Origin: Escherichia phage phi92
Sequence record: NC_023693.1
DNA: 64,000 bases
Direction: 5' to 3' (one strand)
The notes below the pieces were generated by a model. It did no database searches, was not told where the DNA came from, and saw nothing but the letters and a program-made list of their open reading frames with translations. The translations under genes were made by a program, and so were the position numbers. Each line of letters opens with the position of its first letter. Position 1 is the stretch's first letter. Shown one piece after another: positions 6,698-28,379 of this stretch.

Positions 6698-6707
6698 AGG
6701 AGATTAA

Positions 6708-8370: not shown

Positions 8371-8377
8371 ACAAAAA

Positions 8378-8402
8378 GGAGCCATTAGGCTCCTTTTCTT
8401 TT
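8378..8402. terminator. bidirectional terminator hairpin at convergent strand switch
   Basis: GGAGCC-ATTA-GGCTCC flanked by A-run and T-run; + strand genes end at 8370, - strand genes end at 8406. Confidence 0.5.
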
Positions 8403-8405
8403 ATC

Positions 8406-9525: not shown

Positions 9526-9545
9526 TATATCTCCTTCAAAGAAAA

Positions 9546-9565
9546 GGAGCCGTTAGGCTCCTTAT
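9546..9565 (-). terminator. terminator hairpin
   Basis: GGAGCC-GTTA-GGCTCC with T-rich tail on the - strand, just downstream of the SSB-like gene. Confidence 0.45.
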
Positions 9566-9585
9566 ATTCACACAATACTTAACTA

Positions 9586-10533
9586 TTAGAAACAGTGCAG
9601 GAAGTTTCGACCATACTGCAAACCAATAGGAGCAAATGGGATATCATCATCGAAATCTTGAACAACAGGTTCTGATTCTTTCGGTGCTGGCTCTTTCTTC
9701 TCTACTTTTTTAGTTTCTTTCTTAACTTCTTGTACTGAGGTAGACATTCCACGGATAGCAGCAGCTACTTTATCAGACAAAGCAAGAACTTCACGAGCAG
9801 CTTCAATAATCTCTTCTGCCGTTACAGTTTTACCTGTATGATCACGACAAGCGTTAAGAATTGCGTGTCCAACTGAAGCACCAAGATCATAGTCAGTCGC
9901 AGCAGCGCCACGATCTTTAGCAATTTCTGCTTTCAGAGTAACAGTTGCAGATTGTACCACACCAGCCAAGTCGAAAGCATCACCTTTCACACCAGCACGT
10001 AGAAGCTCCAGAGCGCCGTTTACAGCGTGTCCTGTTTCAATCCCTACGGTATCACGTTTTTTGTAGTTAGGCTTGCTACCTTCGTTATTAGATGGCTTAT
10101 TTCCACCTTTTGAAGAAGATTGTGCTTGCTGAACACCTTCTGTTGAAAGAACAGTGATTTTACCTTTAGAGGAGTTGTAGTATGTTTTGCCATTCCATTC
10201 GGAAGGTTTAACATCTATAGTTACTTCTACACCTTTTTCGATAGTAATCCACTTATCACCATCTTTAACTTGCAGGTTTTCATGTTCTGGGTGCAGTTTA
10301 ACTTCACCTAGGCTAACCCAAACACCTTTATCATCAGCACCAGCACCTTTCTCTTTAATAAGCAGAGATGCTTTGTGAGTTGATTCAATTTTCTTATCTG
10401 GCTGACCTGCAACCTTAATATAAGAGACTTTCATTTCATCAAACTTATCCAGTTTGACATATTCAACGATACCTTCAGCCCAGAATGCTTCTTTTTTAGT
10501 ACGACGGTCGATTTCAGAATTAATTACTGGCAT
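9586..10533 (-). CDS. ssDNA-binding-like protein with SSB C-terminal-tip motif
   Basis: 315 aa; RBS gaggag; contains DFDDDIPF, identical to the acidic tip of bacterial SSB, near the C-terminus; Gly/Ser-rich linker before it. Confidence 0.45.
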   Translation of the reverse strand: MPVINSEIDRRTKKEAFWAEGIVEYVKLDKFDEMKVSYIKVAGQPDKKIESTHKASLLIKEKGAGADDKGVWVSLGEVKLHPEHENLQVKDGDKWITIEKGVEVTIDVKPSEWNGKTYYNSSKGKITVLSTEGVQQAQSSSKGGNKPSNNEGSKPNYKKRDTVGIETGHAVNGALELLRAGVKGDAFDLAGVVQSATVTLKAEIAKDRGAAATDYDLGASVGHAILNACRDHTGKTVTAEEIIEAAREVLALSDKVAAAIRGMSTSVQEVKKETKKVEKKEPAPKESEPVVQDFDDDIPFAPIGLQYGRNFLHCF

Positions 10534-10549
10534 AAATTCTCCTCTATAA

Positions 10550-10948
10550 TTACATTACTTTAACACAAAACTCTCGTAAAAGAGTAGCGTCAGTTTCTTC
10601 CAACAGGTATTTACCAAGACCAATACCAAATCCTATTTCACCACTTTCGAAATGGAGGATTTGTATCTTTTCTCCACCAAGGTTAATTACTTTTGCTTTT
10701 CCAGGATTATCCAAAACATCTCGTATTGTATCCTGTAGTAGCATTAGTTCACGTTTTGTGATAGTGGTTTCAGATATCTCTTTGTTTTCTACTCTCACTG
10801 TTAAACGGTTGTATCCACCAAAGAGACATAGTATTTGAATAAAAAAGGTATTATCTTGAGGTTCAACATCTTTTTTAGTTAGCTCAAGACGATTAGTTTC
10901 TCTACTGTAGAACGTCTCGACTAAGATTTTAGAACGATTATCTGTCAT
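10550..10948 (-). CDS. hypothetical protein
   Basis: 132 aa ORF with RBS gagga. Confidence 0.4.
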   Translation of the reverse strand: MTDNRSKILVETFYSRETNRLELTKKDVEPQDNTFFIQILCLFGGYNRLTVRVENKEISETTITKRELMLLQDTIRDVLDNPGKAKVINLGGEKIQILHFESGEIGFGIGLGKYLLEETDATLLREFCVKVM

Positions 10949-11722: not shown

Positions 11723-14700
11723 TCAGTGACAAGTTGACCATGAACTACCAACATCGTAACCAGCAGTGAGAGGTACATTAAGATTGTAATACTCACCAGC
11801 TTTATTAACAGCGATAGATGCTAATTCTCCAGCACGACTGTAGGCTGTAAACCAACCACCTTTCGGAGATTCATGTACGTTAGCCCAAATCTTGCCAGTA
11901 CGTTTCTCTTCCTCTTCTTTCCAGGCATTAACTTTATCCAAACATTCTTTATCAATTTTCTTTTGTTCCTCTGGATCATCAACTTGAGTCCAACCTAAAG
12001 ATTCTTTAGAGAACCATTTAAAATGCACCAGATCACGAGTTACTTCAAGCTGTGCTTCATCGTGATATGCAATCATTTGTTGAACGAATGACTTATTTTT
12101 CCAGTCATCAACAAAAAAGTCAACAGCTAATCCTTCTTCTTCGATAAGATCGTCGTAGATAACCATTGCTCTTTTTGCACAAATAACACCACCACTCTGG
12201 AACAGAGAGTTAAGTATTGCGTGTGCAGATCGTGTAGGTACTTTCCTACCATCAATACCAAGAATGTATTTCTTACCTGTTTTAACCCAAAAATCATGCA
12301 GACGTTCTTTAAGAAGCGCAAGAGGTTTTGCAGCTTCCCAGAAAGCATCGTATACAAGCTGTCCTGTATACATATCACTACCTATAGTTTTTGCTACTTT
12401 TGCAGCTTGAGCACCATAAGTAATACCATACTTAACAGATTTAGCAGGGCTTCGTTCAAACTTACGACCAATAGTGTCAGAAATACGTCGAGCCATCATT
12501 GTATGAACATCATTAGGTTTTTCCAATAATAGAGCATTACAATATTCGTGTGGTTCCTGCTCGTACCGCCAACAATTCCCTGTAATCGTGATGCAGTCTT
12601 TCTGACGCATAACCCATGTACCGAGTTCTGTTTGTGGACACCAAACATCTTCTACACCCCATTCTTCAATAGTCAGACTTTGAACAGGGATGTGAGAGCG
12701 GTTAGCCAACGTTGCCACTTTTACTTTCTGGTCTTTCGTATTGAAGGCTACAGAAATATTACCCCCATGAACCAGGTATGAGGCAGTTAAGGCTGCTTCA
12801 AAAAGTTCTCCTGGGTTCTGCGCCCAGCGCCAAACAGGTTTTTGTTTATGTTTGTGCCAGTAACCATCCGCAATCAAAAAACCTTCCAAGAAAGCCACAC
12901 GCTCGGCATGAGACATATTAACTACACGTTCTACCCACGGAACATCCCATTTACCTTGTTGAACAGAAGTTAAACTATTTACTTGATCTTGTTCCATGTT
13001 AAATGGAGCATTACAAATAATGTTATCTCCTGTGCAAAGCTCGGCAGTTGTTCTGACTTTAGGCACATAAGTATTCCCTGTACTACGAGTATTAACATAC
13101 CAACGGTGATCTGCTGTTGCACGATAAGTATGGGATTTTCCTTTAATCTCAAACGTCTTACTATTTTTATAGAAGACCTTACCTTTTACTTTAGTCCATT
13201 CTTTAAGTCCTGTTTCTGGGTTATATCCTAAGATTTCATCCCCTTCTTGTAGATCGTGATAACCAACCCAACCTTTACGGGTTAGTGCTTGTGCATCCAT
13301 AGGTACACAGTAGTGTGATTCTATTTTTGCCTCAAGAGAATCAAAGTCATAACCAATTTGGAAGTATTTTGGAACTTCTACACCAAATAAGTTACGCATT
13401 TCATATCCGTACAGAGATGTTACACGTGGGATATTTGCTACTAACCTATGTTTCATACGAGACGTAGCTGCATCACACGTTGCAGCAGGAGTTGGTATAC
13501 GACCATCAGCCCTTACTGCTGCCAGATAACCTTTATCGTAATCCTCTTCATCTTCTTCCCAATCAGCACCACCTCCTAGAATAGAGTTCCTACGGTGTTT
13601 ATACGTAAGATACTGCACAATCTGCGTAGCATAAGGAAACTTTTCACCTAGTGCTTCCAAGTTAGGACAAATATCTTTCTCTTGCCCTTTTGTAAAGGAA
13701 GGGTTAGTAAGCACTTTAACACCACGACCTTTAGCTTTAGCAATACGATCTCTTAGTTTCCATTCCAAAGTTTCTGGTGTGCACTCCAGATGATCACATC
13801 TGTCCTGGCAGAAGTTAGATGCCAATGTTTGATCAACATAGTCACGAATAGCTTTCTCCATTTGTGCTTCATCTTTCTTAATCTTAGTGCCAGATTTAAG
13901 AGTGATATCTTTATCTTTATATTCAGATGGACTCCAACCTAAACCAACTAACCAGTTTTTAATATGTGTCGTGTCGTCTAAAGTAGCAGGTACTGTAGGA
14001 TCACAAATAGGTTCTTCTGCTGGAATAGGTAGTTTAAACTCTTTACCTAAAGCAAATAACCACCAACCATCTTCTTTTTGTACAAGTTCACCAGAATGTT
14101 TCTCTGCAAACTTTATCATGTTACTTGAAGGTTCACCATTCTTTTTAAACTGTAGTTTAGGTGGAATGAATGATTTCAAATAACCTTTAGTAGCAGGTTT
14201 AGGAGGTAGCACAGGTTCTGCCTCTAAACGACATGCTTCCATTCGAGCATCCAGATCACGAATATTATCTTCTGCTTGTTTCATATTGAAAGCAAAGCCA
14301 CGGTGCTCTTGACGTGTAATAATATCCGCTACACGTTGTTCTAAGTTAAATGGTTCAGACCACTTATTATAATCACCCCACTCTTCCATCAAATAACGGA
14401 ACACTGCGGTGTTAGCTTTGTTATCGTAAATACAGTAATACAGCATATCTGCTGCAAATGTTTTAAATCTTTCAGTTTCAGGGATATTTTTTCTAAAATC
14501 AATTTTAACATCCCCTCCAGCTTTCTTAGATAACTCTGCCAGACTATGACCACCGAAGCGATCAGGGTTTAGTGTCTTACTTAAGATCATAGTATCACAA
14601 ATTTCAATGTTACTATTACCCCAAGTATTGTACTTAATACTGTAGTTGAGTTTAAAAAATAATTTAATTGCCAGTAAGTCAAAGTTAATGATGTTATGTC

Positions 14701-15037
14701 CAACTACTTTGGTAATTTTATAGTTTGAATTACCTTTAAATTTACCTGTTCCATTTACAAAATCAGGAAAATCTTTAAGAGGGAAATGGGTATATTCTAA
14801 ATGCTCATATTCCTCCAGTCGGTATTCATACTTTCCGTCAGTCTCAACATACGGACGACCATCGAAAAGATATTTATCACCATCATGGAAAGCAATAATC
14901 TCTCCAGTATCATGACTTTCGCACACAATACAGTGCATTGCAAAACTATCTTTTAAACGATATGGACTTGCCAAGTAATCTACACTTTCGTCATTAAGCA
15001 AGTTGTTACTTTCAATGTCGAAAGTAAAAGCTCCCAT
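11723..15037 (-). CDS. family A DNA polymerase with 3'-5' exonuclease domain, interrupted by an intein
   Basis: Exo I FDIES; motif A DFDSLEAKI; motif B RSPAKSVKYGITYG; motif C YHDEAQLEV; in-frame insertion between motifs A and B. Confidence 0.8.
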   Translation of the reverse strand: MGAFTFDIESNNLLNDESVDYLASPYRLKDSFAMHCIVCESHDTGEIIAFHDGDKYLFDGRPYVETDGKYEYRLEEYEHLEYTHFPLKDFPDFVNGTGKFKGNSNYKITKVVGHNIINFDLLAIKLFFKLNYSIKYNTWGNSNIEICDTMILSKTLNPDRFGGHSLAELSKKAGGDVKIDFRKNIPETERFKTFAADMLYYCIYDNKANTAVFRYLMEEWGDYNKWSEPFNLEQRVADIITRQEHRGFAFNMKQAEDNIRDLDARMEACRLEAEPVLPPKPATKGYLKSFIPPKLQFKKNGEPSSNMIKFAEKHSGELVQKEDGWWLFALGKEFKLPIPAEEPICDPTVPATLDDTTHIKNWLVGLGWSPSEYKDKDITLKSGTKIKKDEAQMEKAIRDYVDQTLASNFCQDRCDHLECTPETLEWKLRDRIAKAKGRGVKVLTNPSFTKGQEKDICPNLEALGEKFPYATQIVQYLTYKHRRNSILGGGADWEEDEEDYDKGYLAAVRADGRIPTPAATCDAATSRMKHRLVANIPRVTSLYGYEMRNLFGVEVPKYFQIGYDFDSLEAKIESHYCVPMDAQALTRKGWVGYHDLQEGDEILGYNPETGLKEWTKVKGKVFYKNSKTFEIKGKSHTYRATADHRWYVNTRSTGNTYVPKVRTTAELCTGDNIICNAPFNMEQDQVNSLTSVQQGKWDVPWVERVVNMSHAERVAFLEGFLIADGYWHKHKQKPVWRWAQNPGELFEAALTASYLVHGGNISVAFNTKDQKVKVATLANRSHIPVQSLTIEEWGVEDVWCPQTELGTWVMRQKDCITITGNCWRYEQEPHEYCNALLLEKPNDVHTMMARRISDTIGRKFERSPAKSVKYGITYGAQAAKVAKTIGSDMYTGQLVYDAFWEAAKPLALLKERLHDFWVKTGKKYILGIDGRKVPTRSAHAILNSLFQSGGVICAKRAMVIYDDLIEEEGLAVDFFVDDWKNKSFVQQMIAYHDEAQLEVTRDLVHFKWFSKESLGWTQVDDPEEQKKIDKECLDKVNAWKEEEEKRTGKIWANVHESPKGGWFTAYSRAGELASIAVNKAGEYYNLNVPLTAGYDVGSSWSTCH
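12575..13309 (-). other. intein inside the DNA polymerase gene (boundaries approximate)
   Basis: Starts CVPMDAQALTRKGW after motif A, contains TADH block and LAGLIDADG-like FLEGFLIADGYW, ends ...ITITGN before CWRY; extein then resumes with NDVHT as in T7 polymerase GDIHT. Confidence 0.5.
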
Positions 15038-15533: not shown

Positions 15534-17306
15534 TTAATAAGAACCAGCAGAAATATTTTCTGGGTTACTTGTGTATTGATCGTAATCGTGAAGTGTAGCT
15601 GTTTTAATCTCATAGAAGAAACTACCTGCTGCACCAGTCTCTGAGAACTCACGGTTCTTTAGAATGTAGCAATATGTGCGGTTACGTTCCATAGGATCTT
15701 CAGCTTGTTTATCACGCTCCAGCGCAATTGTGATACCAGCACCTTTAGCAAGGAAGCTACTACCCATTGCATCATCTTCTACAATATGTTCATTACTATT
15801 GTTAGAAGACTTTTTAACGTGTGAAATTACAACAATGGTTATTGCATACTCTTTCATAATGCGTTTGAGCCACGTCGCAAGTTCCTCTTGTTGTGACACG
15901 TCCATACCAGAAAGCAAATCAGAATAAGGGTCGATAACAAGAATGGTTACTCCGAAATAAATAATCATTTCCAGAACCTTCTCTTTAATCACATCTACGT
16001 TAGCTCCACGATCATCACAAACATAGAAACGTGGTGTTCCATCTTCTCGTTCGTAAAAATCACGAATCTTTTCCTCATTATCTTTTAAAATCTTTTCCTT
16101 CTCTTCTTTCGTTTTACGGTGAAGAGGGATATGCAAGAATGAAGACAGTAAGTTACGAGAATACTTCTTATACGTTGCCTCCAAAGATAAAATACCAAGA
16201 GTATGTTCTGGATGTGCAAGAATAATGTGCTTCGTAATCTCGTTAACCAACAGTGTCTTACCGATACTTGTTTTTGCAAGTATAACAGTAATTTCTTCTT
16301 CTACCAAGCCTCCACCTAACATATTTGAAGCAACACGCATGAATGGAGGAAGGGTGATCATTTTAGCTTCCAGGCATTCCAAGGCTGCTTCATACAGTAC
16401 GTTAGAAGCGTAAACACCAGCAGGTGTGTACAGTTTAGCTTTGAAAAAGCGATCAATAAAATGATCAATTTTTCCTTCTACTAGCGCCTGGTTAGGATCT
16501 TTAACATCCGTTAGTTCCATCACGTAAACTTTATTACGTGGTAAGATTTTAACACATTTCTCAACTGCTGCACGTCCAGCTTCATCATTATCCATACATA
16601 GAACAATCTTTTTAAATTGATCTAAGAATTTATAACGATGTTGAAGCTGCTTATGCAGAGATGTTTCGCCACAAGTACCAGATACTACAGCAGGAACAGG
16701 ATATTTACCACCCTTGTTATAATCTTTTAGCATCTGTGTTGCAGCCAGCATATCGTGTTCACCACCAACGATTAGAATAGTACCGCTGTGGTTACGATAT
16801 TTAAACTCCCCAAAAAGATCACAATCCTTTCCTGTTTCACCGATAGGATGTGAGAAATCTTTTGGATCGATACGTTGTTTATACCCAGCAATATTGTAAT
16901 CTTTAGTTGTAGGGTACAGTGTTGAAATTACTTCGCCAGTAGCTTCATCGTACATATAACGTACACCGAAAGGCTTAGAGATATCTTCACGAATACCTCG
17001 ATAACCTTTTGGATTAGTTCCAGTGCTGGCTTTTAGTTTATCATGTACTTCTGGATTAAACTCACTACCCAAGATATCCTCCTCTTCAATTTCTTCGCCG
17101 TGTGCATTTAACCATTTTTGATCAGGGATAGTAAAGCCACAAGAAAAACAATGTGCGCCTCGATGGTCTTCATCGGCATCTAAGCCATATACCATCAAAT
17201 TGTTTTGTGATCGATCACGCCCTCCTTTCATACAACGAGGACACCCAGTATGTCCTTCTTGACTTAGATCAATGTTATACCCATATTTATTTACAACATA
17301 AGACAC
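15534..17306 (-). CDS. DNA primase-helicase (T7 gp4-like)
   Basis: N-terminal zinc ribbon CPRC...CFSCGF; C-terminal DnaB-type helicase with Walker A AKTSIGKT and Walker B VIDPYSDL. Confidence 0.8.
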   Translation of the reverse strand: MSYVVNKYGYNIDLSQEGHTGCPRCMKGGRDRSQNNLMVYGLDADEDHRGAHCFSCGFTIPDQKWLNAHGEEIEEEDILGSEFNPEVHDKLKASTGTNPKGYRGIREDISKPFGVRYMYDEATGEVISTLYPTTKDYNIAGYKQRIDPKDFSHPIGETGKDCDLFGEFKYRNHSGTILIVGGEHDMLAATQMLKDYNKGGKYPVPAVVSGTCGETSLHKQLQHRYKFLDQFKKIVLCMDNDEAGRAAVEKCVKILPRNKVYVMELTDVKDPNQALVEGKIDHFIDRFFKAKLYTPAGVYASNVLYEAALECLEAKMITLPPFMRVASNMLGGGLVEEEITVILAKTSIGKTLLVNEITKHIILAHPEHTLGILSLEATYKKYSRNLLSSFLHIPLHRKTKEEKEKILKDNEEKIRDFYEREDGTPRFYVCDDRGANVDVIKEKVLEMIIYFGVTILVIDPYSDLLSGMDVSQQEELATWLKRIMKEYAITIVVISHVKKSSNNSNEHIVEDDAMGSSFLAKGAGITIALERDKQAEDPMERNRTYCYILKNREFSETGAAGSFFYEIKTATLHDYDQYTSNPENISAGSY

Positions 17307-17318
17307 ATGATTCTCCTA

Positions 17319-17588
17319 CTAAAATGATTCGTTTGTCTCCATAATATATTGCATTTCCAAATCTTCCATATGTTTCTTAAATTGGTAAACAATTTCCGAT
17401 GGGGAAATATCTATATCAAAAAGTTCTTTTGTACCAGAATAAAATCTAATACCATCAACAATAAGACCACCATAATAATCCCAATCACTTTCTCGTGAGA
17501 AAGGATTAGGTTCTTCATAATAGTAATCTACTTCAACAATAATAGGTTCTTTATTATCTTGTTTATACTCAAAATCAAAAGTGTTCAT
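17319..17588 (-). CDS. hypothetical protein
   Basis: 89 aa ORF in operon context. Confidence 0.35.
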   Translation of the reverse strand: MNTFDFEYKQDNKEPIIVEVDYYYEEPNPFSRESDWDYYGGLIVDGIRFYSGTKELFDIDISPSEIVYQFKKHMEDLEMQYIMETNESF

Positions 17589-18532
17589 TATAAATCCTCG
17601 ATAAGCAGTCTGCGGGTTTCATTTAAATCATCAATATTGTAGTTATCTCTTACATACTTAGCAAGAGCCAATCCTTTCTCAATACAAACATCAGGAGATT
17701 CGATTAAGTATTCTACAATATCTTTCCACTCTTTAACTGAATCAGCAAAGAAGATTAGATCTTTAAATTCTTCAGTATAGTAGTTCTCTCGTGGTGAACA
17801 AACGAGTGGCAAACCTTTAGCACCAGCTTCAAGAATTTTTAAATTACTTTTGGCATTATTAAAATGATTATTTACTAATGGAGCTATGGAGATTTGATGA
17901 CCATCGTATGCTTCCATATAACACTCATAAGGACGAATACCTTCATAAACACAACCTGGTTGAATATCTTCTTTAATTTGCAACCATTGAGCACTACTTA
18001 ACTCTTCGTGATCTCTACGAAATCCACATAAAGTTAAATCTTTACCAAAATCAGGAAGAATTGCTAAATCATGTTTATGTGTTTCACTTCCCGCCCAAAC
18101 TAGTGGACTTTTAGAATAACGGTCTTTAGTAAGAACAAACTGTCCTTCATCAAAAGGTAATCCGTTAGGCACAATATGTACATTATCATTGTATTGGCTT
18201 AATTCAACCTTTAATGCCGGAGTTGTTGTGGTTACAAGATCGCTTCTTTCAAGGAACCATTTTAGGTCATCTCGGATTTGATTTTCAAATAGTCCTTCAA
18301 GCATATGCCCTTCAGGAATAATTAAAGAATCATCCAGATCCATTACCAATTTAAACCCAATTTGTTTAAGAGCCAGGAAACCTGGCTTTCCACGTGTTGG
18401 TACTCCATTGAACACAAAAATATTATGCTTAGGATTAATGGTCAGTTTGCGTTTATATGGCAAAATGATTCTATGAAAATCACATACACTATACTTTTCA
18501 TTTCCGCGTGTGTCAAGAATAATATTAGGCAT
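17588..18532 (-). CDS. glycosyltransferase-like protein (paralog 1)
   Basis: 314 aa; clear paralog of the next gene (shared HRIILPY/HRIVMPF, VWAGSETH/IWAGGASH, ILEAGAKGLP); E-x7-E-like C-terminal motif of GT-B enzymes. Confidence 0.5.
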   Translation of the reverse strand: MPNIILDTRGNEKYSVCDFHRIILPYKRKLTINPKHNIFVFNGVPTRGKPGFLALKQIGFKLVMDLDDSLIIPEGHMLEGLFENQIRDDLKWFLERSDLVTTTTPALKVELSQYNDNVHIVPNGLPFDEGQFVLTKDRYSKSPLVWAGSETHKHDLAILPDFGKDLTLCGFRRDHEELSSAQWLQIKEDIQPGCVYEGIRPYECYMEAYDGHQISIAPLVNNHFNNAKSNLKILEAGAKGLPLVCSPRENYYTEEFKDLIFFADSVKEWKDIVEYLIESPDVCIEKGLALAKYVRDNYNIDDLNETRRLLIEDL

Positions 18533-18543
18533 ATAACTCCTTG

Positions 18544-19557
18544 TTAAAGACTTTCAATAACTTGACGACGCAGTTCATTGGCATCTGCAAGATTATAATT
18601 AAGACGAACGTGTTCTGCAAGCATCATACCACGATCTTCTGTGTATCTAGGATTCCTAATTAGCTTGACAACTTCATAGTGCCAAGATGCTTTAGAGTCT
18701 GCATAGATAACAGCCTTTGCATCTACCGGATTGAAGTACGGCAGCACAGGAGAACAGATAATAGGAAGACCCTTTGCACCTGCTTCCAAAATCTTCAAAT
18801 TGCTTTTACAGTTGTTGAAGTCATTATCTACCAGAGGAGCAATTGCAATACTATGACCGTCATACACAGACATATACTCACCTAAATTTTTAATAGCTGG
18901 TTTATACTGTGCATTTGGAATTTTACGTTTTATTTTAACCCACTCCGCAGTAGTTAGATACTGACTATTATTTCCAACAGGTGCAGAAGGATACACTTCA
19001 TACCCTGCAATTGTCAATAGTGTATCATCAAATGTATTAGCTACAAGAGATAAATCAGGCTCATGGCTTGCTCCTCCAGCCCAGATAATAGGTGTGTCAG
19101 AACTACGGTCTTTTGTCAAAGTAAATTGACCTTCGTCGTAAGGTAGTGCGTTTCTAATTACGACAACATTACGATTTAAATGACGAATTTTGTAAGCTAG
19201 GTATTCTGTTGTTACAGTAACAACATCTGCTAACTTAACCATCTCTACAATAGTCTTTGAATGATTAGTAAATACGCCAGCCATATAATGTTCAGGATTA
19301 AGTGAATAAAAGTCATCTAAATCAACAATAATCTTAACACCTTGTGCCTTCAGGCGTTTAACCTCGTCTGCTCCACGAGAATACACTCTATTAAAAACTA
19401 AAACGTCTTTCTTAGGTTTAAATGTATTTCCAGCAAATGGCATTACAATACGATGGTAATCACAACCACTGCCTAACTTATTATCACACTTAAGTACAGG
19501 AGTATTAGGATTTACCATATTTTTGAGCCTCCTCATAAGAGATAAAAGTTTTACCAT
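18544..19557 (-). CDS. glycosyltransferase-like protein (paralog 2)
   Basis: 337 aa; paralog of 17588-18532. Confidence 0.5.
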   Translation of the reverse strand: MVKLLSLMRRLKNMVNPNTPVLKCDNKLGSGCDYHRIVMPFAGNTFKPKKDVLVFNRVYSRGADEVKRLKAQGVKIIVDLDDFYSLNPEHYMAGVFTNHSKTIVEMVKLADVVTVTTEYLAYKIRHLNRNVVVIRNALPYDEGQFTLTKDRSSDTPIIWAGGASHEPDLSLVANTFDDTLLTIAGYEVYPSAPVGNNSQYLTTAEWVKIKRKIPNAQYKPAIKNLGEYMSVYDGHSIAIAPLVDNDFNNCKSNLKILEAGAKGLPIICSPVLPYFNPVDAKAVIYADSKASWHYEVVKLIRNPRYTEDRGMMLAEHVRLNYNLADANELRRQVIESL

Positions 19558-20191
19558 TGCGAAGATCCTCCAGAGATTGTTTATATTGTTCCCAGTTTAC
19601 ACCAATCCCCTGTTCTTTCTCTTCTTTTGACAGATTCGCAAAAGGTAAAGGATTGTCTCCAAACACATCATCAGGATGGATAAACGCCATAATTCGAATA
19701 GGACATGGCACGCCTTGAATACCTCGGTTCAAACCTGCCAGTGGAACGCGATGAATCCACTCTGCATCTTCATATCCATAACCGTGGGTGTATGAGCGGA
19801 AATAGCCAGCTTTCTCAATAACTGCACGGGAATACATACCAAACTGGCACATACCTAGTTCCCAAATAACCACTTCCCCTTCAATACCTTTTACTTTATC
19901 TTTAAAGTATTCAGGCATACCAAAGAAATCCCAACCATTTTCCTTCGCCTGTTTTACAAAATATGTTTCCCAACCTGGAACAACAGGATAACAATCATCA
20001 TCAAAAATAAACCAGTAGTCATACCCTTCATCATAAAACTTTTTCATCAGTTCATTACGGGCATATGCAACACCTTTTCGTTCACGATCATACTGTACAA
20101 CAAAAGTAGCATTAGGATCAGTTACAAGATAATCTTTAAGAGGACGCTTACCTACAGTAATAACACCAACACCAATTTTTGTATTTTCCAA
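19505..20191 (-). CDS. GT-A-like glycosyltransferase
   Basis: 228 aa; DxD-type acidic motif YWFIFDDDCYP after a Rossmann-like N-terminus. Confidence 0.45.
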   Translation of the reverse strand: MENTKIGVGVITVGKRPLKDYLVTDPNATFVVQYDRERKGVAYARNELMKKFYDEGYDYWFIFDDDCYPVVPGWETYFVKQAKENGWDFFGMPEYFKDKVKGIEGEVVIWELGMCQFGMYSRAVIEKAGYFRSYTHGYGYEDAEWIHRVPLAGLNRGIQGVPCPIRIMAFIHPDDVFGDNPLPFANLSKEEKEQGIGVNWEQYKQSLEDLRNGKTFISYEEAQKYGKS

Positions 20192-20200
20192 AATAACTCC

Positions 20201-20764
20201 TTAAATAATTTTATTCATGTCTTGACAATGTAAAAGGTGTGAAACAGCTTTTCTAGGATCATCATTACCTAAACGGTATGTGTGAAATAAATATAACCCA
20301 CGTAGTAAACCTAGCCTTTTATTGTTAGCGTGCAATGCTTTAGAGAAAATTATATCAAACTGTATTGATCTTTCCTCAAAAGGAATTTCATTCCACAGAC
20401 TCTTACGAAAGAGAAGAAAGAATCCTGCTAAGATAGCATCTGTAGGTACTTCCTCTATTGAGTTTCCCCATTCTAGATGTGCTCTTTTTGCAATCTCAAT
20501 GTGGTGTAATATATTCGGATCTTCACTTCTTTCATTATTAAATAATTGATATGTTGATCCCAATCTGTTACAAGATGCACCAAGAACATCAAAATCAGGA
20601 TTTGAACGGACAATTGATTCCAGCCAAGCAGGTTGTTCTGGAAGAAGAAACATTGTATCAATGTCTCTTAGGCAAATCCAACTATCTTCTGGTAAGACAC
20701 TTATTGTGTCATTGATACCTTTTCCAATATCTCCAGAAAGATAGGGAGTTATGTGAAATATCAT
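20201..20764 (-). CDS. hypothetical protein (possible fourth glycosyltransferase-like gene)
   Basis: 187 aa ORF contiguous with the glycosyltransferase operon; acidic motif ICLRDIDTMF. Confidence 0.35.
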   Translation of the reverse strand: MIFHITPYLSGDIGKGINDTISVLPEDSWICLRDIDTMFLLPEQPAWLESIVRSNPDFDVLGASCNRLGSTYQLFNNERSEDPNILHHIEIAKRAHLEWGNSIEEVPTDAILAGFFLLFRKSLWNEIPFEERSIQFDIIFSKALHANNKRLGLLRGLYLFHTYRLGNDDPRKAVSHLLHCQDMNKII

Positions 20765-20821
20765 ACTCCCTCCGTATTATTACTTTAGCATTTTTAGACT
20801 AAAAAGTCCAAATGGTTTTAC

Positions 20822-21016
20822 CTATTGATTACGTTTTGCGAGTTCCATTTGGATAGCTAAACTGTGATCTCGTGCTTCCATATATTCTTTATATGTTTCA
20901 TTAAGATGATCACGACAAACATCACGCAGTTTAATCAGTTTATCTGTAGGGATACCACTAAGATCATCCCAAGATTTTACAACTTCACCAGTATCATTGA
21001 TCCCAATGGTTTTCAT
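20822..21016 (-). CDS. hypothetical protein
   Basis: 64 aa ORF. Confidence 0.3.
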   Translation of the reverse strand: MKTIGINDTGEVVKSWDDLSGIPTDKLIKLRDVCRDHLNETYKEYMEARDHSLAIQMELAKRNQ

Positions 21017-21272
21017 CTACAACCTCCTTAATTGCTACAGCACAGTTTTTGCAGATACACTGCCCTTTACCTTTAGAAATCTGGATGTAAGGTTCATTTT
21101 CATTTTCGCCCTTACGTGAGTCATATATTACAGAATTGAAGCACACAACGCAAATATTTTTTAAGATTGTATACTTATCAACTTTCTTTTTTGTTTTAAA
21201 GTTAACTTCAATAACATCAGCCATCAGTGTAACACTCCCAGTATGTTGCTTTGTGACATAACCATAGAACAT
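20994..21272 (-). CDS. zinc-ribbon protein
   Basis: 92 aa; paired CVVC...CICKNC cysteine motifs. Confidence 0.4.
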   Translation of the reverse strand: MFYGYVTKQHTGSVTLMADVIEVNFKTKKKVDKYTILKNICVVCFNSVIYDSRKGENENEPYIQISKGKGQCICKNCAVAIKEVVDENHWDQ

Positions 21273-21512: not shown

Positions 21513-22022
21513 TTAGCGATAGAATTGATGTTCTTTGTAGCGGTACACTAGAACCATATCTTTTTCCCAGTGTGCTCTTATTGTAGATTTTTTAAAGTAT
21601 AATGCTCCTTTTGTAATATCTAATGCAATTCGTAATTCTGGAAAATGCGTATCGAGATAAAGTAGACGTTCTGCTATAGCCTTAGCTTCCTTCCACTTAT
21701 CACGTTCCATAACGTTGAATGTCTTTGTGTAAGAGAATTGTCCTTTTTGAAACAAAACTTCTTTTATAGTATCAGGGAAATATGAATCTCTAGCCCTATT
21801 CAATACTACATTACCAACAGCAGACATACCGCGCTTTCCTTGATTACGACTTTCTGCATAGATTGCACAAGCTAATAGATTTTCTTTACTATCACGCTTT
21901 GTACACTTGTGAACTACTTTAGCAGTTTTTACGTTTGCAGCTTCGGCTTGCGCCACAACAGGTGTAAATGTAAAAGCAGTTAAGGATAGTAACGCAATTG
22001 CGACAAAGGTTTTTATTGACAA
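21513..22022 (-). CDS. secreted cell-wall hydrolase (SleB/CwlJ-like)
   Basis: N-terminal signal peptide MSIKTFVAIALLSLTAFTFTPVVAQA; core AIYAESRNQG...VGNVVLNRA resembles the SleB-type hydrolase domain. Confidence 0.5.
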   Translation of the reverse strand: MSIKTFVAIALLSLTAFTFTPVVAQAEAANVKTAKVVHKCTKRDSKENLLACAIYAESRNQGKRGMSAVGNVVLNRARDSYFPDTIKEVLFQKGQFSYTKTFNVMERDKWKEAKAIAERLLYLDTHFPELRIALDITKGALYFKKSTIRAHWEKDMVLVYRYKEHQFYR

Positions 22023-22742: not shown

Positions 22743-22758
22743 ATGCGCCCCGAAGGGC
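22743..22758 (-). terminator. terminator-like hairpin
   Basis: GCGCCC-CGAA-GGGCGC immediately downstream of the TerD-like gene. Confidence 0.35.
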
Positions 22759-22769
22759 GCTATGATTTA

Positions 22770-23366
22770 TTACTCGAACCAATCGTCGCCAGCGCCAAAC
22801 GCTTTAACTACATCGTAAATATCAAGCCCAGCTTTACCCACACCATACGCTTTCAGTTTCCATTCGCTATCTTCTCGCACCAGGGAGGCAACGTGGCAAA
22901 TGGTGTTACCTGCAAGTTCTGGAGCCAAGAAGTCAAAGTCCAGCAGTTCAACATTACGTTCATCATCGAAGATTTTAAGGAAACCTTCGGTAGCGTGACC
23001 AAGGCGTTTCTTACCCGTTTCGTCATCAATAGTAATTACGAATGCAATTTCCTGTGCTTCAGCAGAGATATTATCCAGTGTAACATCAATCTGCTCCATT
23101 TGTCCTACACCGTCACGAACATCTTCACCTGCAAAAGTAGAACGTTCAGGATCAAATTTCTGTGCGTAGCATACCAGGTGGCGAGGAGACAACAGTTCCG
23201 GCAGACCAGATGCATTGTGTCGGCAAATCAGAGCACTAACATCCAGATCCAGTTTTTCGTTAGATTTCCAAGAGAATTCCAGACGAATGCGTTTCAGTGC
23301 TGGTGCGATCTTTTTCAGGGAAACTTTTTCGCTAGAACCTTTTTTCAGGGAAATTTTCTGAGTCAT
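22770..23366 (-). CDS. TerD-domain stress-response protein
   Basis: 198 aa; N-terminus ISLKKGSSEKVSLKK and overall pattern typical of the TerD family. Confidence 0.65.
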   Translation of the reverse strand: MTQKISLKKGSSEKVSLKKIAPALKRIRLEFSWKSNEKLDLDVSALICRHNASGLPELLSPRHLVCYAQKFDPERSTFAGEDVRDGVGQMEQIDVTLDNISAEAQEIAFVITIDDETGKKRLGHATEGFLKIFDDERNVELLDFDFLAPELAGNTICHVASLVREDSEWKLKAYGVGKAGLDIYDVVKAFGAGDDWFE

Positions 23367-23438
23367 AATTTATTATCTCCTTTGTTGTTAATTTACGTTG
23401 TCTATTTTACTAATCTTTTCTACAAAGTCAAGCGTTTT

Positions 23439-24233
23439 TTACGCTTTTGCTCCGAATTTTTTAACCCACTCACCAAACTCTTCGGATAACAGTTTATCGT
23501 AAAGTTCTTCGTCAGACAAGGACAAATCTGCAATACCGATAAAATCAACATTATCGTATTCTTTTGCCAAGTCTTTCAGGAATTTAAAGTTTGCATTACC
23601 TACACCAACCATAAACCAGTAAACAGGAGTGTTGCGGTGTTTGTTCAGCAAACTACGTACTGCTGAAGTATCCATGTTCTCCCCGTCAGTTTGGAAGAAA
23701 ATCATTGCAGGAGTACGATCAACTTGTGCATCAGTATCTACAACCTGTTCTACAACAGTACGTGTAACTTCTACACGTTCTTTTTTACCAGTTAGTTTAG
23801 CAAGGAAACCCTTAGCCGGAACTTCTTCATACTCAACGACTTCGCGTGTAATATTTTTCATAGGTACACTACCGAAGTATGTATCATAGATCTCTTGCAT
23901 TACTGGGGCATAAGCTGTACCACCATTGATGCAAACATTAGACATACAAGAGCCGACATAATCATCATATACATCAGCCGTTGCGGGAGGCAGTTCAAAA
24001 GAAGAACTATTGAAAGCCCACATGTCAATCTGTGCATTATCATCAAATTTCATACCAAACGGCAGCAGCTTACCTACAAAATCACTAACAGTGCCATCAC
24101 GATACAGCTCACACATACTACCCGAAATATCTAAGGCGCTACCGACACGAAGAACAACATCGTTAATCTTTTTCTTACGCAGAGATACGGTAAGAGTTTC
24201 TTGACGTTTTTTAAGACTGATTTTATTGGACAT
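23439..24233 (-). CDS. vWA-domain protein with TerD-like N-terminus
   Basis: ISLKKRQETLTVSLRKK N-terminus; MIDAS-like DISGSM, GGTAY and FFQTDGENMD blocks of a von Willebrand A domain. Confidence 0.55.
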   Translation of the reverse strand: MSNKISLKKRQETLTVSLRKKKINDVVLRVGSALDISGSMCELYRDGTVSDFVGKLLPFGMKFDDNAQIDMWAFNSSSFELPPATADVYDDYVGSCMSNVCINGGTAYAPVMQEIYDTYFGSVPMKNITREVVEYEEVPAKGFLAKLTGKKERVEVTRTVVEQVVDTDAQVDRTPAMIFFQTDGENMDTSAVRSLLNKHRNTPVYWFMVGVGNANFKFLKDLAKEYDNVDFIGIADLSLSDEELYDKLLSEEFGEWVKKFGAKA

Positions 24234-24234
24234 A

Positions 24235-24504
24235 TTATTTCTCCTTTCTGAGTGTAATGTTAGTAACTTCTAAATCCACTTCTACCATTTCTGTATCATA
24301 TGAAATACAGCTAAGTTGACCTCTTTGTGAACCGTTCAGACACATTGCTTGGTTTGTATTAACCTTAATAAACACTAAGTTTCTGAACGTATCTAAACCA
24401 GCATCTTGATAGGCAACATAATATACAAATGTATCACCTGCGTCAAGTTCTCCAAAACATTTAGGTTCATCTGATTCGTCGTCTTTGATATTAAATTTAA
24501 GCAC
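24235..24504 (-). CDS. hypothetical protein
   Basis: 89 aa ORF. Confidence 0.35.
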   Translation of the reverse strand: MLKFNIKDDESDEPKCFGELDAGDTFVYYVAYQDAGLDTFRNLVFIKVNTNQAMCLNGSQRGQLSCISYDTEMVEVDLEVTNITLRKEK

Positions 24505-25060
24505 TATCTTCTCCTTTACCTACTTTCAAGCCTAAATAGAAAGCCTCTCTAGTGATTTTTTGCAACTCGTTTAAAGAGATAGTTACAACTAAATCATCTT
24601 CAATTTCTAGTTTTGAGTCTTCTTCTGTCTCAATGCAAGTATTATGCACTTTGTGGTAAGGATTGTCAACACGTTTAAATTTATTATTTTCAGTGCTGAA
24701 GAAGCAATCTGGATCTTCTTCCCCATCACCCCAACCCTGGTTAGGATCTTCTTCAGATCTTTCTGTTGGGATCTCACCTGTAAAGTGTTCTTCTAATACC
24801 AGAGCAATCCCATCTCCAAGATCGGAAGAGAACATCAAATTACAAACTTCTTCCCAAGGCATAGACCACTTAAATCTTTTACGATTGCCATGTTTATCTT
24901 CTTCGTTAGAGAAAACACTACCATAGCTATCATAATTCCCATACATCTCTTCGACAACCTTACCACCTTTCAAAAGAAATAGGTAGCAAGGAGAGCCATC
25001 GAAAGAGGTAGAGAGAGCAGCATTACCAGACTCTTTGCACAAGAAACTAAAACACCCCAT
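24497..25060 (-). CDS. hypothetical protein
   Basis: 187 aa ORF. Confidence 0.4.
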   Translation of the reverse strand: MGCFSFLCKESGNAALSTSFDGSPCYLFLLKGGKVVEEMYGNYDSYGSVFSNEEDKHGNRKRFKWSMPWEEVCNLMFSSDLGDGIALVLEEHFTGEIPTERSEEDPNQGWGDGEEDPDCFFSTENNKFKRVDNPYHKVHNTCIETEEDSKLEIEDDLVVTISLNELQKITREAFYLGLKVGKGEDSA

Positions 25061-25260
25061 TATACACCAGCCTTAAGATCAATTAAAGCCAAAGTTGTTT
25101 CAGAGTGTGTTTGCTCGTCTACAGGCGCAGTCATATGATAATACAAAAAATCTTCGGCATCATACCAATCTGATTCTTGACCTTGTTTCCAACCATCAAT
25201 GAAAGCATCTTCCATAATGGTTTGCAATTCTTCACGAGTTAAGTGAATATCTTTACTCAT
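25060..25260 (-). CDS. hypothetical protein
   Basis: 66 aa acidic ORF. Confidence 0.35.
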   Translation of the reverse strand: MSKDIHLTREELQTIMEDAFIDGWKQGQESDWYDAEDFLYYHMTAPVDEQTHSETTLALIDLKAGV

Positions 25261-25493
25261 TACACATTCTCCTCTTTTACCAATTCCATCGTTGAATTGT
25301 CAAAACCATCTTTAGAAGAATAGGTATAGACAGAACGTAGTTCTCGCAGGACAGTGAATACATTAGGATCATCTAACCAAGCATCCTGGAGGAGAACATA
25401 ACGATCTTCATTGTCATACTGAACAGCAATCATAGAACCAGACAGTTTGTAAATTTTAATATTCATAATATATTTCTCCTTAAAGTAGACCAC
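25260..25493 (-). CDS. hypothetical protein
   Basis: 77 aa ORF. Confidence 0.35.
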   Translation of the reverse strand: MVYFKEKYIMNIKIYKLSGSMIAVQYDNEDRYVLLQDAWLDDPNVFTVLRELRSVYTYSSKDGFDNSTMELVKEENV

Positions 25494-26583
25494 GTTTAAC
25501 AGTTTGAATCATACCATCTTCAAGAGATTGCACTTCTTGAATGTAATCAATACGGGCAGCACGGGCTTCAGTGTTGATTCGGTTAGTTTCTTCCAACATT
25601 TTAACTAAGTTTTCTTGATCACGACGTAATGTTTCAATATCCAATACTTGACGATTAGCAAGTTGTGTAGCTTCAATTTGGTTTTGTGCAGCCAGATCAC
25701 TACCCATTGCAATAGCAGCATTAAATTCATTCAGTACATTGTTCTGTGTATCGGCTGCTTTCTTCTGGCGTAGACTTTCAATATACATAGAAAAGTTTGC
25801 AGAGTAAGCAGGGATAACATTATTCACAATATTACGGGCTGATCGCATCAAACTTGCAGATACTTTCTGCATACTTTGTACACGTGGCCCCATCTGAACA
25901 CACAGTAAGCGTAAGGCTTTCAGGTCTGCAATACGAATTTCAAGCAGATCCATAGTATCACGAGTACGCTGACGCTCTTCTACGTCATTTTCAGGCAGTG
26001 TATTAAGGCGAATTTCTTCTTTTTCATAAGTAGCTGTTAGAAGCTCTATATCTCTGTTTAAGCTAAGAGCATATTTTGCAATAGCCTCTTCTAAACGTTG
26101 CAGATATCGTAAAGAATCTTCTTCTTTTTTCAAGTCTGTTTGGAGTGTCTTTACCAAACCTTCAATACGGTTATTAATGGTGTCAAATTCTCCAAACAAA
26201 TCTTCTTTCATACCTAAAACTTTTTTAACTAGTTTACCTAAACCTTTAGATTGTTTAATAGAGTTAGGATCAAGTTGCTTTGCTTGCTTAATAAGTGCAG
26301 TTAAACGTTCACTCATTTCATCTCCCTGAGATGAACGCTGGTGTTTAAGCACTTCAGCATTAAGGTTACGAAGAGTAAGTCCTGCATCAGCACCAACCTG
26401 TTCAATCTCTTCACGCGACATTGGAGGCAGCATTTGTACAGGTCGTGCAACAGCAGGGGCATATACAGGGCTTGCATCCATAGCACTTGGAGCAAACAAA
26501 GACTTACTTTTTTCTGTTGTTGCCGTGAATACACTCATTTCAGACGGTTTGCTTTTTACGGCACTGATAAAAGGACTGGACAT
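25480..26583 (-). CDS. TelA-like (toxic anion resistance family) protein
   Basis: 367 aa, long helical coiled-coil-like sequence resembling the TelA/KlaA family. Confidence 0.55.
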   Translation of the reverse strand: MSSPFISAVKSKPSEMSVFTATTEKSKSLFAPSAMDASPVYAPAVARPVQMLPPMSREEIEQVGADAGLTLRNLNAEVLKHQRSSQGDEMSERLTALIKQAKQLDPNSIKQSKGLGKLVKKVLGMKEDLFGEFDTINNRIEGLVKTLQTDLKKEEDSLRYLQRLEEAIAKYALSLNRDIELLTATYEKEEIRLNTLPENDVEERQRTRDTMDLLEIRIADLKALRLLCVQMGPRVQSMQKVSASLMRSARNIVNNVIPAYSANFSMYIESLRQKKAADTQNNVLNEFNAAIAMGSDLAAQNQIEATQLANRQVLDIETLRRDQENLVKMLEETNRINTEARAARIDYIQEVQSLEDGMIQTVKRGLL

Positions 26584-26651
26584 TCAATTTCCTCCATATT
26601 CTTTAGTAAATGGTGATACCTCTGTACCACCATCATAACACAAATTAAGTA

Positions 26652-27521
26652 TTAAACAAACATATCTAAATAATTTGTAGTAATAAATGCTCCATCTGCT
26701 TCCAGATTAACATAACCAGTAGCATTAGTGGTTAAGAAATCCAGATCGAAGGACTCTTTAACACCCCGTACCTCAACACGAGAGATATCGAATACAGGTA
26801 GTGTAACAGCCTCTTCGTGCAATACCGTACCTTTGTAGGTTGCCTTAATGATAAACTTGATATTACCTGTTCCAGCATCATATAAAACACTTTCAAACCC
26901 TTTGAGAGTATATTTATCACCAGAGGTGAAGTGCAAAGTTGCTTTGTTTACAGTACGGTTCTTACGAGGAGTTCCTTTCACACGTTTATGATCACTACGT
27001 CTTTTGCATTTAGGAATGAATACAAACGATACACTCTCAAGAAAGGTATCAACATCAAGGATTTTAATATCCTCTGTTGCAGCAAATTTTGAAGTAGTTG
27101 CATCAAAATGCTTTTCCCTGCGATCATACATAAAGATATCAAACCGATCTTCTAAATCAAACCGATCTTCTAAATCAAACAAATTATGCAGTTTAATTTC
27201 AGAATGCTTGCACATTGCAGCAACCTTAAACTCTTCAAAACGTGGGTGTTCTACAAGTTCTTCAAGTTTTACACCAAAGACAGTATATTGTTTCGAAGTT
27301 TTTTCTGGTGTTGGCATTACAGAAGCATAATCACCGATTGCGCTCTTAAAGCAAAATTGTTCTTGACCTGTATTTTTACCAACGAATTTACAGTATTCGT
27401 CATCGTGCATACTTTCCTGGGTAGTACCAACAAACTCAAAACCATCTTTATTCTTCTCAAGGATTTCTTGATTAAAGATCCAACCTTCCAGGCGATATAC
27501 TTTACCAACTTCTAGTTTCAT
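26652..27521 (-). CDS. hypothetical protein
   Basis: 289 aa ORF; contains an exact 18-bp in-frame tandem duplication (EDRFDL twice). Confidence 0.4.
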   Translation of the reverse strand: MKLEVGKVYRLEGWIFNQEILEKNKDGFEFVGTTQESMHDDEYCKFVGKNTGQEQFCFKSAIGDYASVMPTPEKTSKQYTVFGVKLEELVEHPRFEEFKVAAMCKHSEIKLHNLFDLEDRFDLEDRFDIFMYDRREKHFDATTSKFAATEDIKILDVDTFLESVSFVFIPKCKRRSDHKRVKGTPRKNRTVNKATLHFTSGDKYTLKGFESVLYDAGTGNIKFIIKATYKGTVLHEEAVTLPVFDISRVEVRGVKESFDLDFLTTNATGYVNLEADGAFITTNYLDMFV

Positions 27522-27556
27522 CTGTTTCTCCTTCTTATTTAATCTGTATTAAATTA

Positions 27557-28162
27557 TTAACGACGACGTGAGCTACTAAAACTACGTTTCGACGAAGAAT
27601 AACTTTTCGAAGACTTACTATAAGAGCTAATAGGGCTTGAGTAAGACTTACGAGCAGAGTAATCACTATTCACTTTCGTTGTTGATGGGCGTGAATACGT
27701 TTGTACACTTTGCTGCTTAATTGTGTTTTGTTTAGTGGTTGTATATGTATTTCCTTGTTTATCATAAAAACTATGCTTTTGTGTTGTATATGCTTTACTG
27801 TTAGTTGTAGGAGCAGCGTTGTTATTAATAATTGTTGTGTTGCTACCACCATCTCTATAACCGCCACCGCCACTATTACCACTCAACATATGACCAAGAA
27901 GCATACCTGTAGCAAACTCACCTACACCAGAAGAACCACTGCCGCCTCCTTGCACAACAACTGTTGAAGGTTGTGCAGGTGCTGCTTGAACAACTTGAGG
28001 TGCAGGCTGATTTACATATTGTTCATCTACCATCTGATTTGGTGTTTGTTGGTAACGTTGATTTTGTACATTTTCAGAATCATCACAACCTACCAGCAAT
28101 GCACTACCTAAAACAACTGCAACAATAAAAGATTTAATGTTTTTCATTTGTAACCCTCTCAT
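27557..28162 (-). CDS. lipoprotein with low-complexity Q/S/T/Y-rich region
   Basis: Signal peptide with lipobox LLVGC; G-rich and S/Y/K-rich low-complexity C-terminus. Confidence 0.45.
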   Translation of the reverse strand: MRGLQMKNIKSFIVAVVLGSALLVGCDDSENVQNQRYQQTPNQMVDEQYVNQPAPQVVQAAPAQPSTVVVQGGGSGSSGVGEFATGMLLGHMLSGNSGGGGYRDGGSNTTIINNNAAPTTNSKAYTTQKHSFYDKQGNTYTTTKQNTIKQQSVQTYSRPSTTKVNSDYSARKSYSSPISSYSKSSKSYSSSKRSFSSSRRR

Positions 28163-28340
28163 TTAAAGTCTCAACACAATTTTTAAAATCCCTAGAGAAA
28201 CAATACATCTGTTCTCCGTTCCTGTTGATAGTAATTGTATGGTTATCAATATATGTTGTCAAGATAAAAATCAAACAAAACAACCCTAGAGCAAAACAAA
28301 TATTTTCAAACAGAATCCAAAGAACACGTAAAACCACCAT
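28134..28340 (-). CDS. small membrane protein
   Basis: 68 aa, hydrophobic segment; overlaps start of downstream gene. Confidence 0.3.
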   Translation of the reverse strand: MVVLRVLWILFENICFALGLFCLIFILTTYIDNHTITINRNGEQMYCFSRDFKNCVETLNERVTNEKH

Positions 28341-28379
28341 CAGATCACCTCAACAAAGCCCCCGAAGGGGCTTAATGAA

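Follow-up and report, generated by a model that had tools for sequence, protein, structure and literature searches.

Glycosylation of virion proteins is known from mycobacteriophage Che8 and from the chloroviruses. In phage T4, whose DNA carries glucosylated hydroxymethylcytosine, the stretch between the polymerase and primase-helicase genes holds beta-gt and the gene for dCMP hydroxymethylase. In the systems known, glycosylation of a base needs a base hydroxyl group, which is provided either by an enzyme of the ThyA family (a dCMP or dUMP hydroxymethylase, or a 5hodCMP synthase; PMC13326640) or by a C5-methyltransferase acting with a TET-like oxygenase (bioRxiv 10.1101/2023.12.21.572611). Here we analyse a cassette of four glycosyltransferase genes at positions 17588-20764 of a 64,000-nucleotide stretch (the window) of the genome of Escherichia phage phi92 (NC_023693.1), for which a first-pass annotation had preferred DNA hypermodification and named virion proteins or the host envelope as the alternative target. 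We find that all four genes encode glycosyltransferases, each assignable by fold and family, and we tentatively favour the serial assembly of a rhamnose-containing glycan on virion proteins as the best reading of their function.

The four enzymes and their sugar supply

Region 17300-21100 of the window is 98-99% identical to that of more than 50 phi92-like coliphages of the genus Justusliebigvirus (Stephanstirmvirinae), including alia, EmilieFrey (Bas61) and PaulScherrer (Bas60); for the latter two the DNA identity to the cassette region is 98.4%. The RefSeq and BASEL records of these phages label the genes either 'glycosyltransferase' (x4) or as two of 'putative disaccharide synthase' and two of 'putative glycosyltransferase'. 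All four open reading frames (ORFs) called in the first-pass annotation are present at the positions given there, on the minus strand, and each is preceded by a Shine-Dalgarno-like sequence.

ORF1 (17588-18532, minus strand; 314 amino acids, isoelectric point (pI) 5.2) and ORF2 (18544-19557, minus strand; 337 amino acids, pI 8.9) are GT4-like GT-B glycosyltransferases, having two Rossmann-like domains and a match to the group-1 glycosyltransferase model. Their 42% identity makes them paralogues, as had been proposed, and both match phrog_7162 (E ~1e-145; 6.7e-149 for ORF2). ORF2 is nearer than ORF1 to the single GT-B protein of other phages, giving higher scores at the IMG/VR loci described below. 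ORF3 (19505-20191, minus strand; 228 amino acids, TTG start, pI 5.2) matches phrog_2456 'glycosyltransferase' (E 2e-79), and its profile detects 1475 relatives (E up to 0.001). Two of its motifs are invariant in 18 homologues, namely F63-D64-D65-D66, in agreement with the DDD motif first noted, and Y138-G139-x-E141-D142; the Pfam matches, to TAGT, GT2 and Glyco_transf_7C, are weak and sub-threshold. On these sequence features ORF3 is a GT-A glycosyltransferase with a DxD motif. ORF4 (20201-20764, minus strand; 187 amino acids, pI 5.6), the first gene of the cassette, has a predicted model of high confidence (pLDDT 94.6) whose top structural matches are all GT-A enzymes, and its D34-x-D36 is invariant among homologues; judged by this model, it is a GT-A glycosyltransferase of minimal size. 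It had been described as a fourth related ORF, and while its nature as a glycosyltransferase is upheld, no relatedness to ORF3 is detectable (hhalign probability 1.2%), the two having only their fold class in common. Profile and structure assignment thus gives a glycosyltransferase in each case, at the level of the fold for ORF1 and ORF4 and by sequence for ORF3.

None of the four proteins contains a hydrophobic segment of membrane strength, and all are predicted to be soluble and cytoplasmic. Fold searches do not discriminate between classes of acceptor, and sequence and profile searches of the PDB with ORF2, ORF3, ORF4 and the ORF3 and ORF4 family profiles gave chance matches only. The isoelectric points listed above do not discriminate either, those of the T4 alpha- and beta-glucosyltransferases being 6.1 and 9.05, and fusion proteins that contain the ORF3 domain have no informative partner domains.

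The genus also encodes its own supply of an activated sugar, outside the window. In PaulScherrer, RmlB, RmlA, RmlC and RmlD lie between the glutaredoxin and class I ribonucleotide reductase genes, with thymidylate synthase and thymidine kinase genes nearby; RmlD is also found in EmilieFrey, and in 53 records at 95% identity or more. RmlD and ORF2 have the same distribution among phages (105 'Escherichia' records each, and both in Phapecoctavirus, Klebsiella and Citrobacter phages), a co-occurrence that is not independent evidence of joint function, since the two sets of genes both belong to the core of a single subfamily. The dTDP-rhamnose pathway has been noted before, with the speculation that hydroxymethylated nucleotides are rhamnosylated (Olsen et al. 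2020; PMC7552041), and DNA rhamnosylation has thus been put forward in print before, as a conjecture.

The three-gene unit in other phages and the nature of the acceptor

Scanning IMG/VR with an alignment of the GT-B proteins (ORF1/ORF2) gave 78 loci. Outside contigs that resemble Stephanstirmvirinae, many of these loci contain a single GT-B gene flanked by ORF3-like and ORF4-like genes, at 30-47% identity. The contigs with this GT-A/GT-B/GT-A unit, many of them unrelated, span GC contents of 0.31 to 0.65, and because the unit recurs across them it appears to be old and mobile; the GT-B gene would then have been duplicated in Stephanstirmvirinae.

We clustered the neighbouring ORFs and scanned the cluster representatives against Pfam and PHROGs, counting 45 lineages outside Stephanstirmvirinae after dereplication at 90% DNA identity of the GT-B gene. 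A gene for the large terminase subunit, the portal or the major capsid protein was found within 5 kb in at least 25 of the 45 lineages, a lower bound that takes in recurrent neighbour clusters only, and DnaB or RecA was found in the locus in six; none of the 45 has a ThyA, gp42, ThyX or Rml gene within 10 kb. Six lineages (L032, L038, L039, L052, L055 and L059/L060) have the trio inside the head-to-tail structural block itself. In L038, L052, L055 and L059 it follows immediately on the major capsid gene, in L032 it comes after the terminase and portal genes, and in L039 it is upstream of the tape measure gene. The order in L052 is terminase, portal, protease, major capsid (7322-8617), ORF3-like (8839-9474), GT-B (9471-10388), ORF4-like (~10385-10918), head-tail adaptor, head closure and, later, tape measure. 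The ORF3-like and GT-B genes of this contig have a 4-base start/stop overlap, and tblastn coordinates indicate a similar one between the GT-B and ORF4-like genes.

Other neighbouring genes would build or tailor glycans rather than modify bases. L046 has a GT2 gene, a PLOD-type glycosyltransferase gene and a Methyltransf_24 gene whose product is weakly similar to rhamnosyl O-methyltransferase; in L005, genes for a GLF mutase, a deacetylase and methyltransferases separate the terminase gene from that for the portal; and Streptomyces phage KimJongPhill has a homologue with UDP-glucose dehydrogenase and methyltransferase genes just before the terminase gene. Generic S-adenosylmethionine (SAM) methyltransferases occur in nine loci. 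The distant locus L006 has a glycosyltransferase and sugar-synthesis cluster beside DnaB and family A polymerase genes. We also considered, and rejected, a TET plus methyltransferase pathway in L046, which its PHROG matches ('2OG-Fe(II) oxygenase', 'DNA methyltransferase') had seemed to indicate: by Pfam the two proteins are the PLOD-type glycosyltransferase (99.9 bits) and Methyltransf_24.

A separate observation concerns a Burkholderia dolosa contig (JAIMDN010000082.1, L087), which at 3025-8440 has an ORF1 homologue of 411 amino acids, 35% identical over its full length, directly following genes for an invasin/intimin-like adhesin and a 571-amino-acid protein. This locus may be an adhesin-glycosylating system, and its layout suggests protein glycosylation.

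The genes around the unit in other phages suggest a glycan made alongside the head proteins, and this context fits the glycosylation of virion proteins or of the envelope, the alternative that the first-pass annotation had placed second, better than the modification of DNA. We hypothesize that the cassette serves the serial assembly of a rhamnose-containing glycan on virion proteins, a reading to which we assign a probability of roughly 40%. Rhamnose use, serial action and the identity of the acceptor are what we infer: the four enzymes would assemble a short oligosaccharide one after another, with dTDP-L-rhamnose from the phage RmlABCD enzymes and UDP-sugars of the host as donors, and the acceptor would not be DNA but most likely one or more virion proteins (such as the capsid, a decoration protein or a fibre), much as in the virion glycosylation shown for mycobacteriophages and chloroviruses.

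We stress that several points weigh against this reading. In phi92 the cassette sits with early/middle replication genes, not with head genes; the literature examined holds no report of a glycosylated virion protein for Stephanstirmvirinae; and gp108-110 of Che8 show no detectable similarity to the four proteins. The terminase-adjacent site of small phages is a common home of unrelated accessory genes, and by a rough estimate the chance of adjacency to the terminase gene is ~30%. GT4 enzymes, moreover, are typically retaining whereas most known rhamnosyltransferases are inverting, which leaves the use of dTDP-rhamnose by any given one of the enzymes doubtful.

By a second, doubtful alternative, the enzymes would remodel host envelope glycans at the cytoplasmic face of the membrane, acting on lipid-linked intermediates or on the lipopolysaccharide (LPS) core. 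Such remodelling would alter or mask the glycan receptors of the phage, for instance blocking superinfection or leaving less of the progeny stuck to debris, and in temperate relatives the genes of the unit would be lysogenic-conversion genes. Many of the best structural neighbours of ORF1, namely PglA, PglH, PimA, PimB, WbnH, WaaG and WaaB, do act on lipid-linked or LPS acceptors, and dTDP-rhamnose is a classic O-antigen precursor. In small phages the unit is found at accessory-gene sites between NinG and terminase, but its position in other phages between the major capsid and adaptor genes, with start/stop overlaps, would be unusual for a conversion gene. That these phages recognise surface glycans (PMC8594841, PMC11990801) speaks for an envelope target; phi92, however, is strictly lytic, and the authors of the BASEL collection doubt that a complete modification of surface glycans could succeed during lytic growth (PMC11990801). 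The lack of membrane segments in the four proteins also counts against an envelope target, as does the lack of a flippase, polymerase or ligase gene adjoining the cassette in any of the loci examined.

The replication block and the case for DNA

In phi92 the cassette adjoins the genes for a primase-helicase (17306-15534, minus strand) and a DNA polymerase (15037-11723, minus strand), and the order of transcription is ORF4, ORF3, ORF2, ORF1, an 89-amino-acid ORF, primase-helicase and DNA polymerase. Being on the minus strand, the cassette therefore lies upstream of the replication genes and not downstream of them, where the first-pass annotation had placed it. The 89-amino-acid ORF (17319-17588, minus strand) is conserved and acidic (pI 4.1; phrog_4240, E 8e-35) and has a start codon that overlaps the stop codon of ORF1 (ATGA); the only contigs in which it occurs beside the cassette are Stephanstirmvirinae-like ones (IMG/VR loci L008-L023 and L029), and whether it is a member of the cassette is uncertain. 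On the minus strand at 22745-22760, after the TerD gene, is a terminator-like GC hairpin (GCGCCC-TTCG-GGGCGC) with a T-rich tail, which is likely to mark the upstream end of the unit in which cassette and replication genes are transcribed. A consensus scan found no other terminator-like site on this strand up to the polymerase region, which makes it plausible that the cassette shares a transcript with the genes for the primase-helicase and the DNA polymerase. A promoter scan gave 54 sites, not above chance (45.7 +/- 7.1 expected).

This position recalls that of beta-gt and gene 42 in T4, so that the parallel in other phages on which the first-pass annotation relied is borne out, and DNA deserves to be weighed as the acceptor. 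The four enzymes would then put rhamnose-containing glycans on a hydroxylated base of the phage DNA, in the manner of the glucosyl-hydroxymethylcytosine of T4 and along the lines suggested by Olsen et al. (2020). The rml genes lie inside a nucleotide-metabolism block, with ribonucleotide reductase, ThyX and thymidine kinase genes as neighbours; phages RB69 and RL38JI use several glycosyltransferases to glycosylate DNA serially (PMC13326640); and the distant homologue in L006 is near DnaB and family A polymerase genes. TAGT is the nearest Pfam family of ORF3, which also matches the PHROG of the T-even beta-glucosyl-HMC-alpha-glucosyltransferase (E 5e-5). The TAGT match, however, reaches only 23.4 bits against a cut-off of 27.5 bits and is confined to residues 16-75, the nucleotide-binding and DxD region, and across the ORF3 family and its multidomain relatives the matches to GT2 and Glyco_transf_7C are equally good. 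None of the four ORFs has a sequence match to the T4 alpha- or beta-glucosyltransferase (tblastn E >2), and none could be assigned to a known family of DNA glycosyltransferases, the fold-level likeness being common to many glycosyltransferases that do not act on DNA.

Restriction data also count against DNA. Bas60-62, phi92-like members of Justusliebigvirus, have been described as 'exceptionally susceptible' to restriction-modification systems, 'despite a putative dTDP glycosylation machinery', in an assay in which T-even phages were resistant (Maffei et al.; PMC8594841), and a second paper likewise states the restriction susceptibility of phi92-like phages (PMC10844046). The Durham phages sensitive to BrxU (C5-modified cytosine) are all Straboviridae, and Justusliebigvirus Paula, as we infer from PMC13390438, is apparently not among them. 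The literature examined contains no nucleoside analysis of this phage group.

Neither route to a base hydroxyl was found in the sequences searched. With E. coli ThyA and T4 gp42 as tblastn queries, which detect each other at E 4e-11, we searched the window, EmilieFrey at 24-68 kb and PaulScherrer at 1-29 and 54-150 kb, and found no match with E below 4; EmilieFrey and the window bridge the 29-54 kb gap in PaulScherrer. This agrees with the earlier statement that no hydroxymethylase gene is seen in the window, and extends it: the search outside the window that the first-pass annotation had proposed found no ThyA-family gene in the genus genome and no Tet_JBP domain among 30 larger unannotated proteins, a scan that was not exhaustive. 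The sole thymidylate synthase of the genus is ThyX, with the motif HRLFSRNAASSR and a match to Pfam Thy1 (36.9 bits), and on these grounds we rejected the possibility that it is a hidden hydroxymethylase of the ThyA family. The absence of a ThyA or ThyX gene within 10 kb in all 45 distant lineages points the same way. Taken together, the restriction susceptibility, the lack of a ThyA-family enzyme and, among the proteins scanned, of a Tet_JBP domain, and the sub-threshold TAGT match make bulk hypermodification of the DNA, the target first preferred, unlikely.

The ThyX protein is itself divergent. That of PaulScherrer (24025-24996) is long, at 323 amino acids, with a Thy1 match over residues 22-170 only, a C-terminal extension of ~150 residues and a change of the first Arg of the RHR motif to Thr; its gene adjoins those for an NT5C-like nucleotidase and thymidine kinase. 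A DNA rhamnosylation that is sparse or sequence-specific, so that common restriction enzymes still cut, would escape the restriction argument, with the base precursor made by a chemistry so far not known in phages, either by this divergent 323-amino-acid ThyX as a hydroxymethylase or by an unrecognised oxygenase; we consider this very unlikely. Were it true, rhamnosylated DNA would be seen for the first time, as would a pathway of DNA glycosylation that needs neither a ThyA-family nor a TET enzyme.

Directly upstream of the cassette, on the same strand, is a Ter-like cluster at 22770-29357, unusual in a lytic coliphage, with genes for TerD (23366-22770), a vWA-TerF-like protein (24233-23439), TelA (26583-25480) and the membrane protein TerC (29357-28380), all on the minus strand; it is continued to ~33697 by macrodomain, phosphoribosyltransferase, HAD-like and AAA ATPase genes. 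We take it to resemble the 'Ter-dependent, nucleoside-like metabolite' neighbourhoods of Anantharaman, Iyer and Aravind 2012. This proximity raises the idea that the cassette acts on a small molecule or a host protein, either neutralising a defence signal or effector or decorating a nucleoside-like product of the Ter, phosphoribosyltransferase and HAD genes. Such a target seems improbable to us: the hairpin at 22745-22760 parts the Ter genes from the cassette, no Ter genes accompany the three-gene unit in other phages, and four glycosyltransferases are many for one product.

Several further features of the window lie outside the question of the acceptor. About 750 bases upstream of the cassette, among early/middle genes, is a gene for a SleB-type cell wall hydrolase (21513-22022, minus strand; Pfam Hydrolase_2, 72 bits) with a signal-peptide-like N-terminus, distinct from the endolysin annotated elsewhere. 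The DNA polymerase (11723-15037, minus strand) has 1104 amino acids against 859 in EmilieFrey, and a UvrD-like helicase (38599-41412, minus strand) 937 against 578; these differences fit intein insertions, and the PaulScherrer annotation gives both proteins as intein-containing precursors. An insertion of ~279 bases at 35177-35451 (minus strand), not present in EmilieFrey, splits a gene into ORFs at 36263-35397 and 35156-34185. On the plus strand, at 50196-51386, is a gene for a 396-amino-acid protein that combines four CapR-homology repeats (161 bits) with a weakly matching T5orf172 domain (GIY-YIG-like) and is annotated as hypothetical in relatives.

Comparison with known systems

The genes themselves, their annotation as glycosyltransferases, the rhamnose pathway, the DNA hypothesis and the restriction data that run contrary to it have all been published. 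To these we add confirmation of ORF1 and ORF4 at the level of the fold, the identification of ThyX as the sole thymidylate synthase with the absence of the ThyA family, and the conserved three-gene glycosyltransferase unit that is often located inside head-gene blocks. Justusliebigvirus and Phapecoctavirus, candidates for use in phage therapy, rank among the coliphages with the broadest host ranges, and their conserved sugar machinery consists of four glycosyltransferases and a full dTDP-rhamnose pathway. (Four records labelled 'Campylobacter phage', host C. jejuni, MG065639, MG065645, MG065650 and MG065689, are 96-98% identical to coliphages of these two genera, and are probably mislabelled or derived from contaminating coliphages.) If the virion is the target, phage 'glycan shields' would extend from actinobacteriophages to phages of Gram-negative hosts, with a bearing on antibody recognition, mucus binding and particle stability, and the three-gene unit would be a marker for such phages in metagenomes; if DNA is the target, a new base modification would be expected.

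Compared with T4, the cassette differs in several respects: it has no sequence similarity to the alpha- and beta-glucosyltransferases or to gp42, the genus genome is without a hydroxymethylase whereas T4 has gp42 as its dCMP hydroxymethylase, the phi92-like genus is restriction-sensitive whereas T-even phages are resistant, and the donor is likely dTDP-rhamnose, not the UDP-glucose of T4. The TAGT systems (PF20691), which include the T6 beta-glucosyl-HMC-alpha-glucosyltransferase and the 5mYOX-linked GT-A enzymes (Burke et al.; bioRxiv 10.1101/2023.12.21.572611), resemble the cassette in that ORF3 is likewise a small phage GT-A enzyme with a DxD motif. Its best Pfam match is to TAGT, which 12 of 18 members of the ORF3 family match weakly. 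They differ in that ORF3 falls below the cut-off, that a TET/JBP oxygenase was not found in the proteins scanned, and that the C5-methyltransferase of PaulScherrer lies ~60 kb from the cassette.

The capsid-glycosylating enzymes of chloroviruses, giant viruses and archaeal viruses (such as NY2A B736L and STIV A197) are 9-16% identical, a likeness of fold only, and the bacterial GT4 enzymes (PglA, PglH, PimA, BshA, sucrose-phosphate synthase) are 10-14% identical. ORF1 is shorter than the bacterial GT4 enzymes (314 amino acids against 360-400), and as read from the GT-B alignment it apparently does not have the first Glu of the usual GT4 E-x7-E motif.

Freeman et al. in 2023 reportedly described glycosylation of the Che8 capsid with the glycosyltransferases gp108-110. 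The two systems differ in their hosts and in that the cassette stands with replication genes here, and alignment of the GT-B, ORF3 and ORF4 families with gp108-110 gives hhalign probabilities of 0.07-0.34%. We therefore offer Che8, whose capsid is reported to be glycosylated (PMC11256854), as an analogy and make no claim of membership. The likeness is one of layout. In both systems adjacent genes encode a large glycosyltransferase and two small ones (391/232/211 amino acids in Che8, 337/228/187 here), and the linkage to head and packaging genes, although absent in phi92, where replication genes adjoin, is present in distant homologues (within 5 kb in 25 of 45 lineages), which lie in or beside such genes and often have SAM methyltransferases with them.

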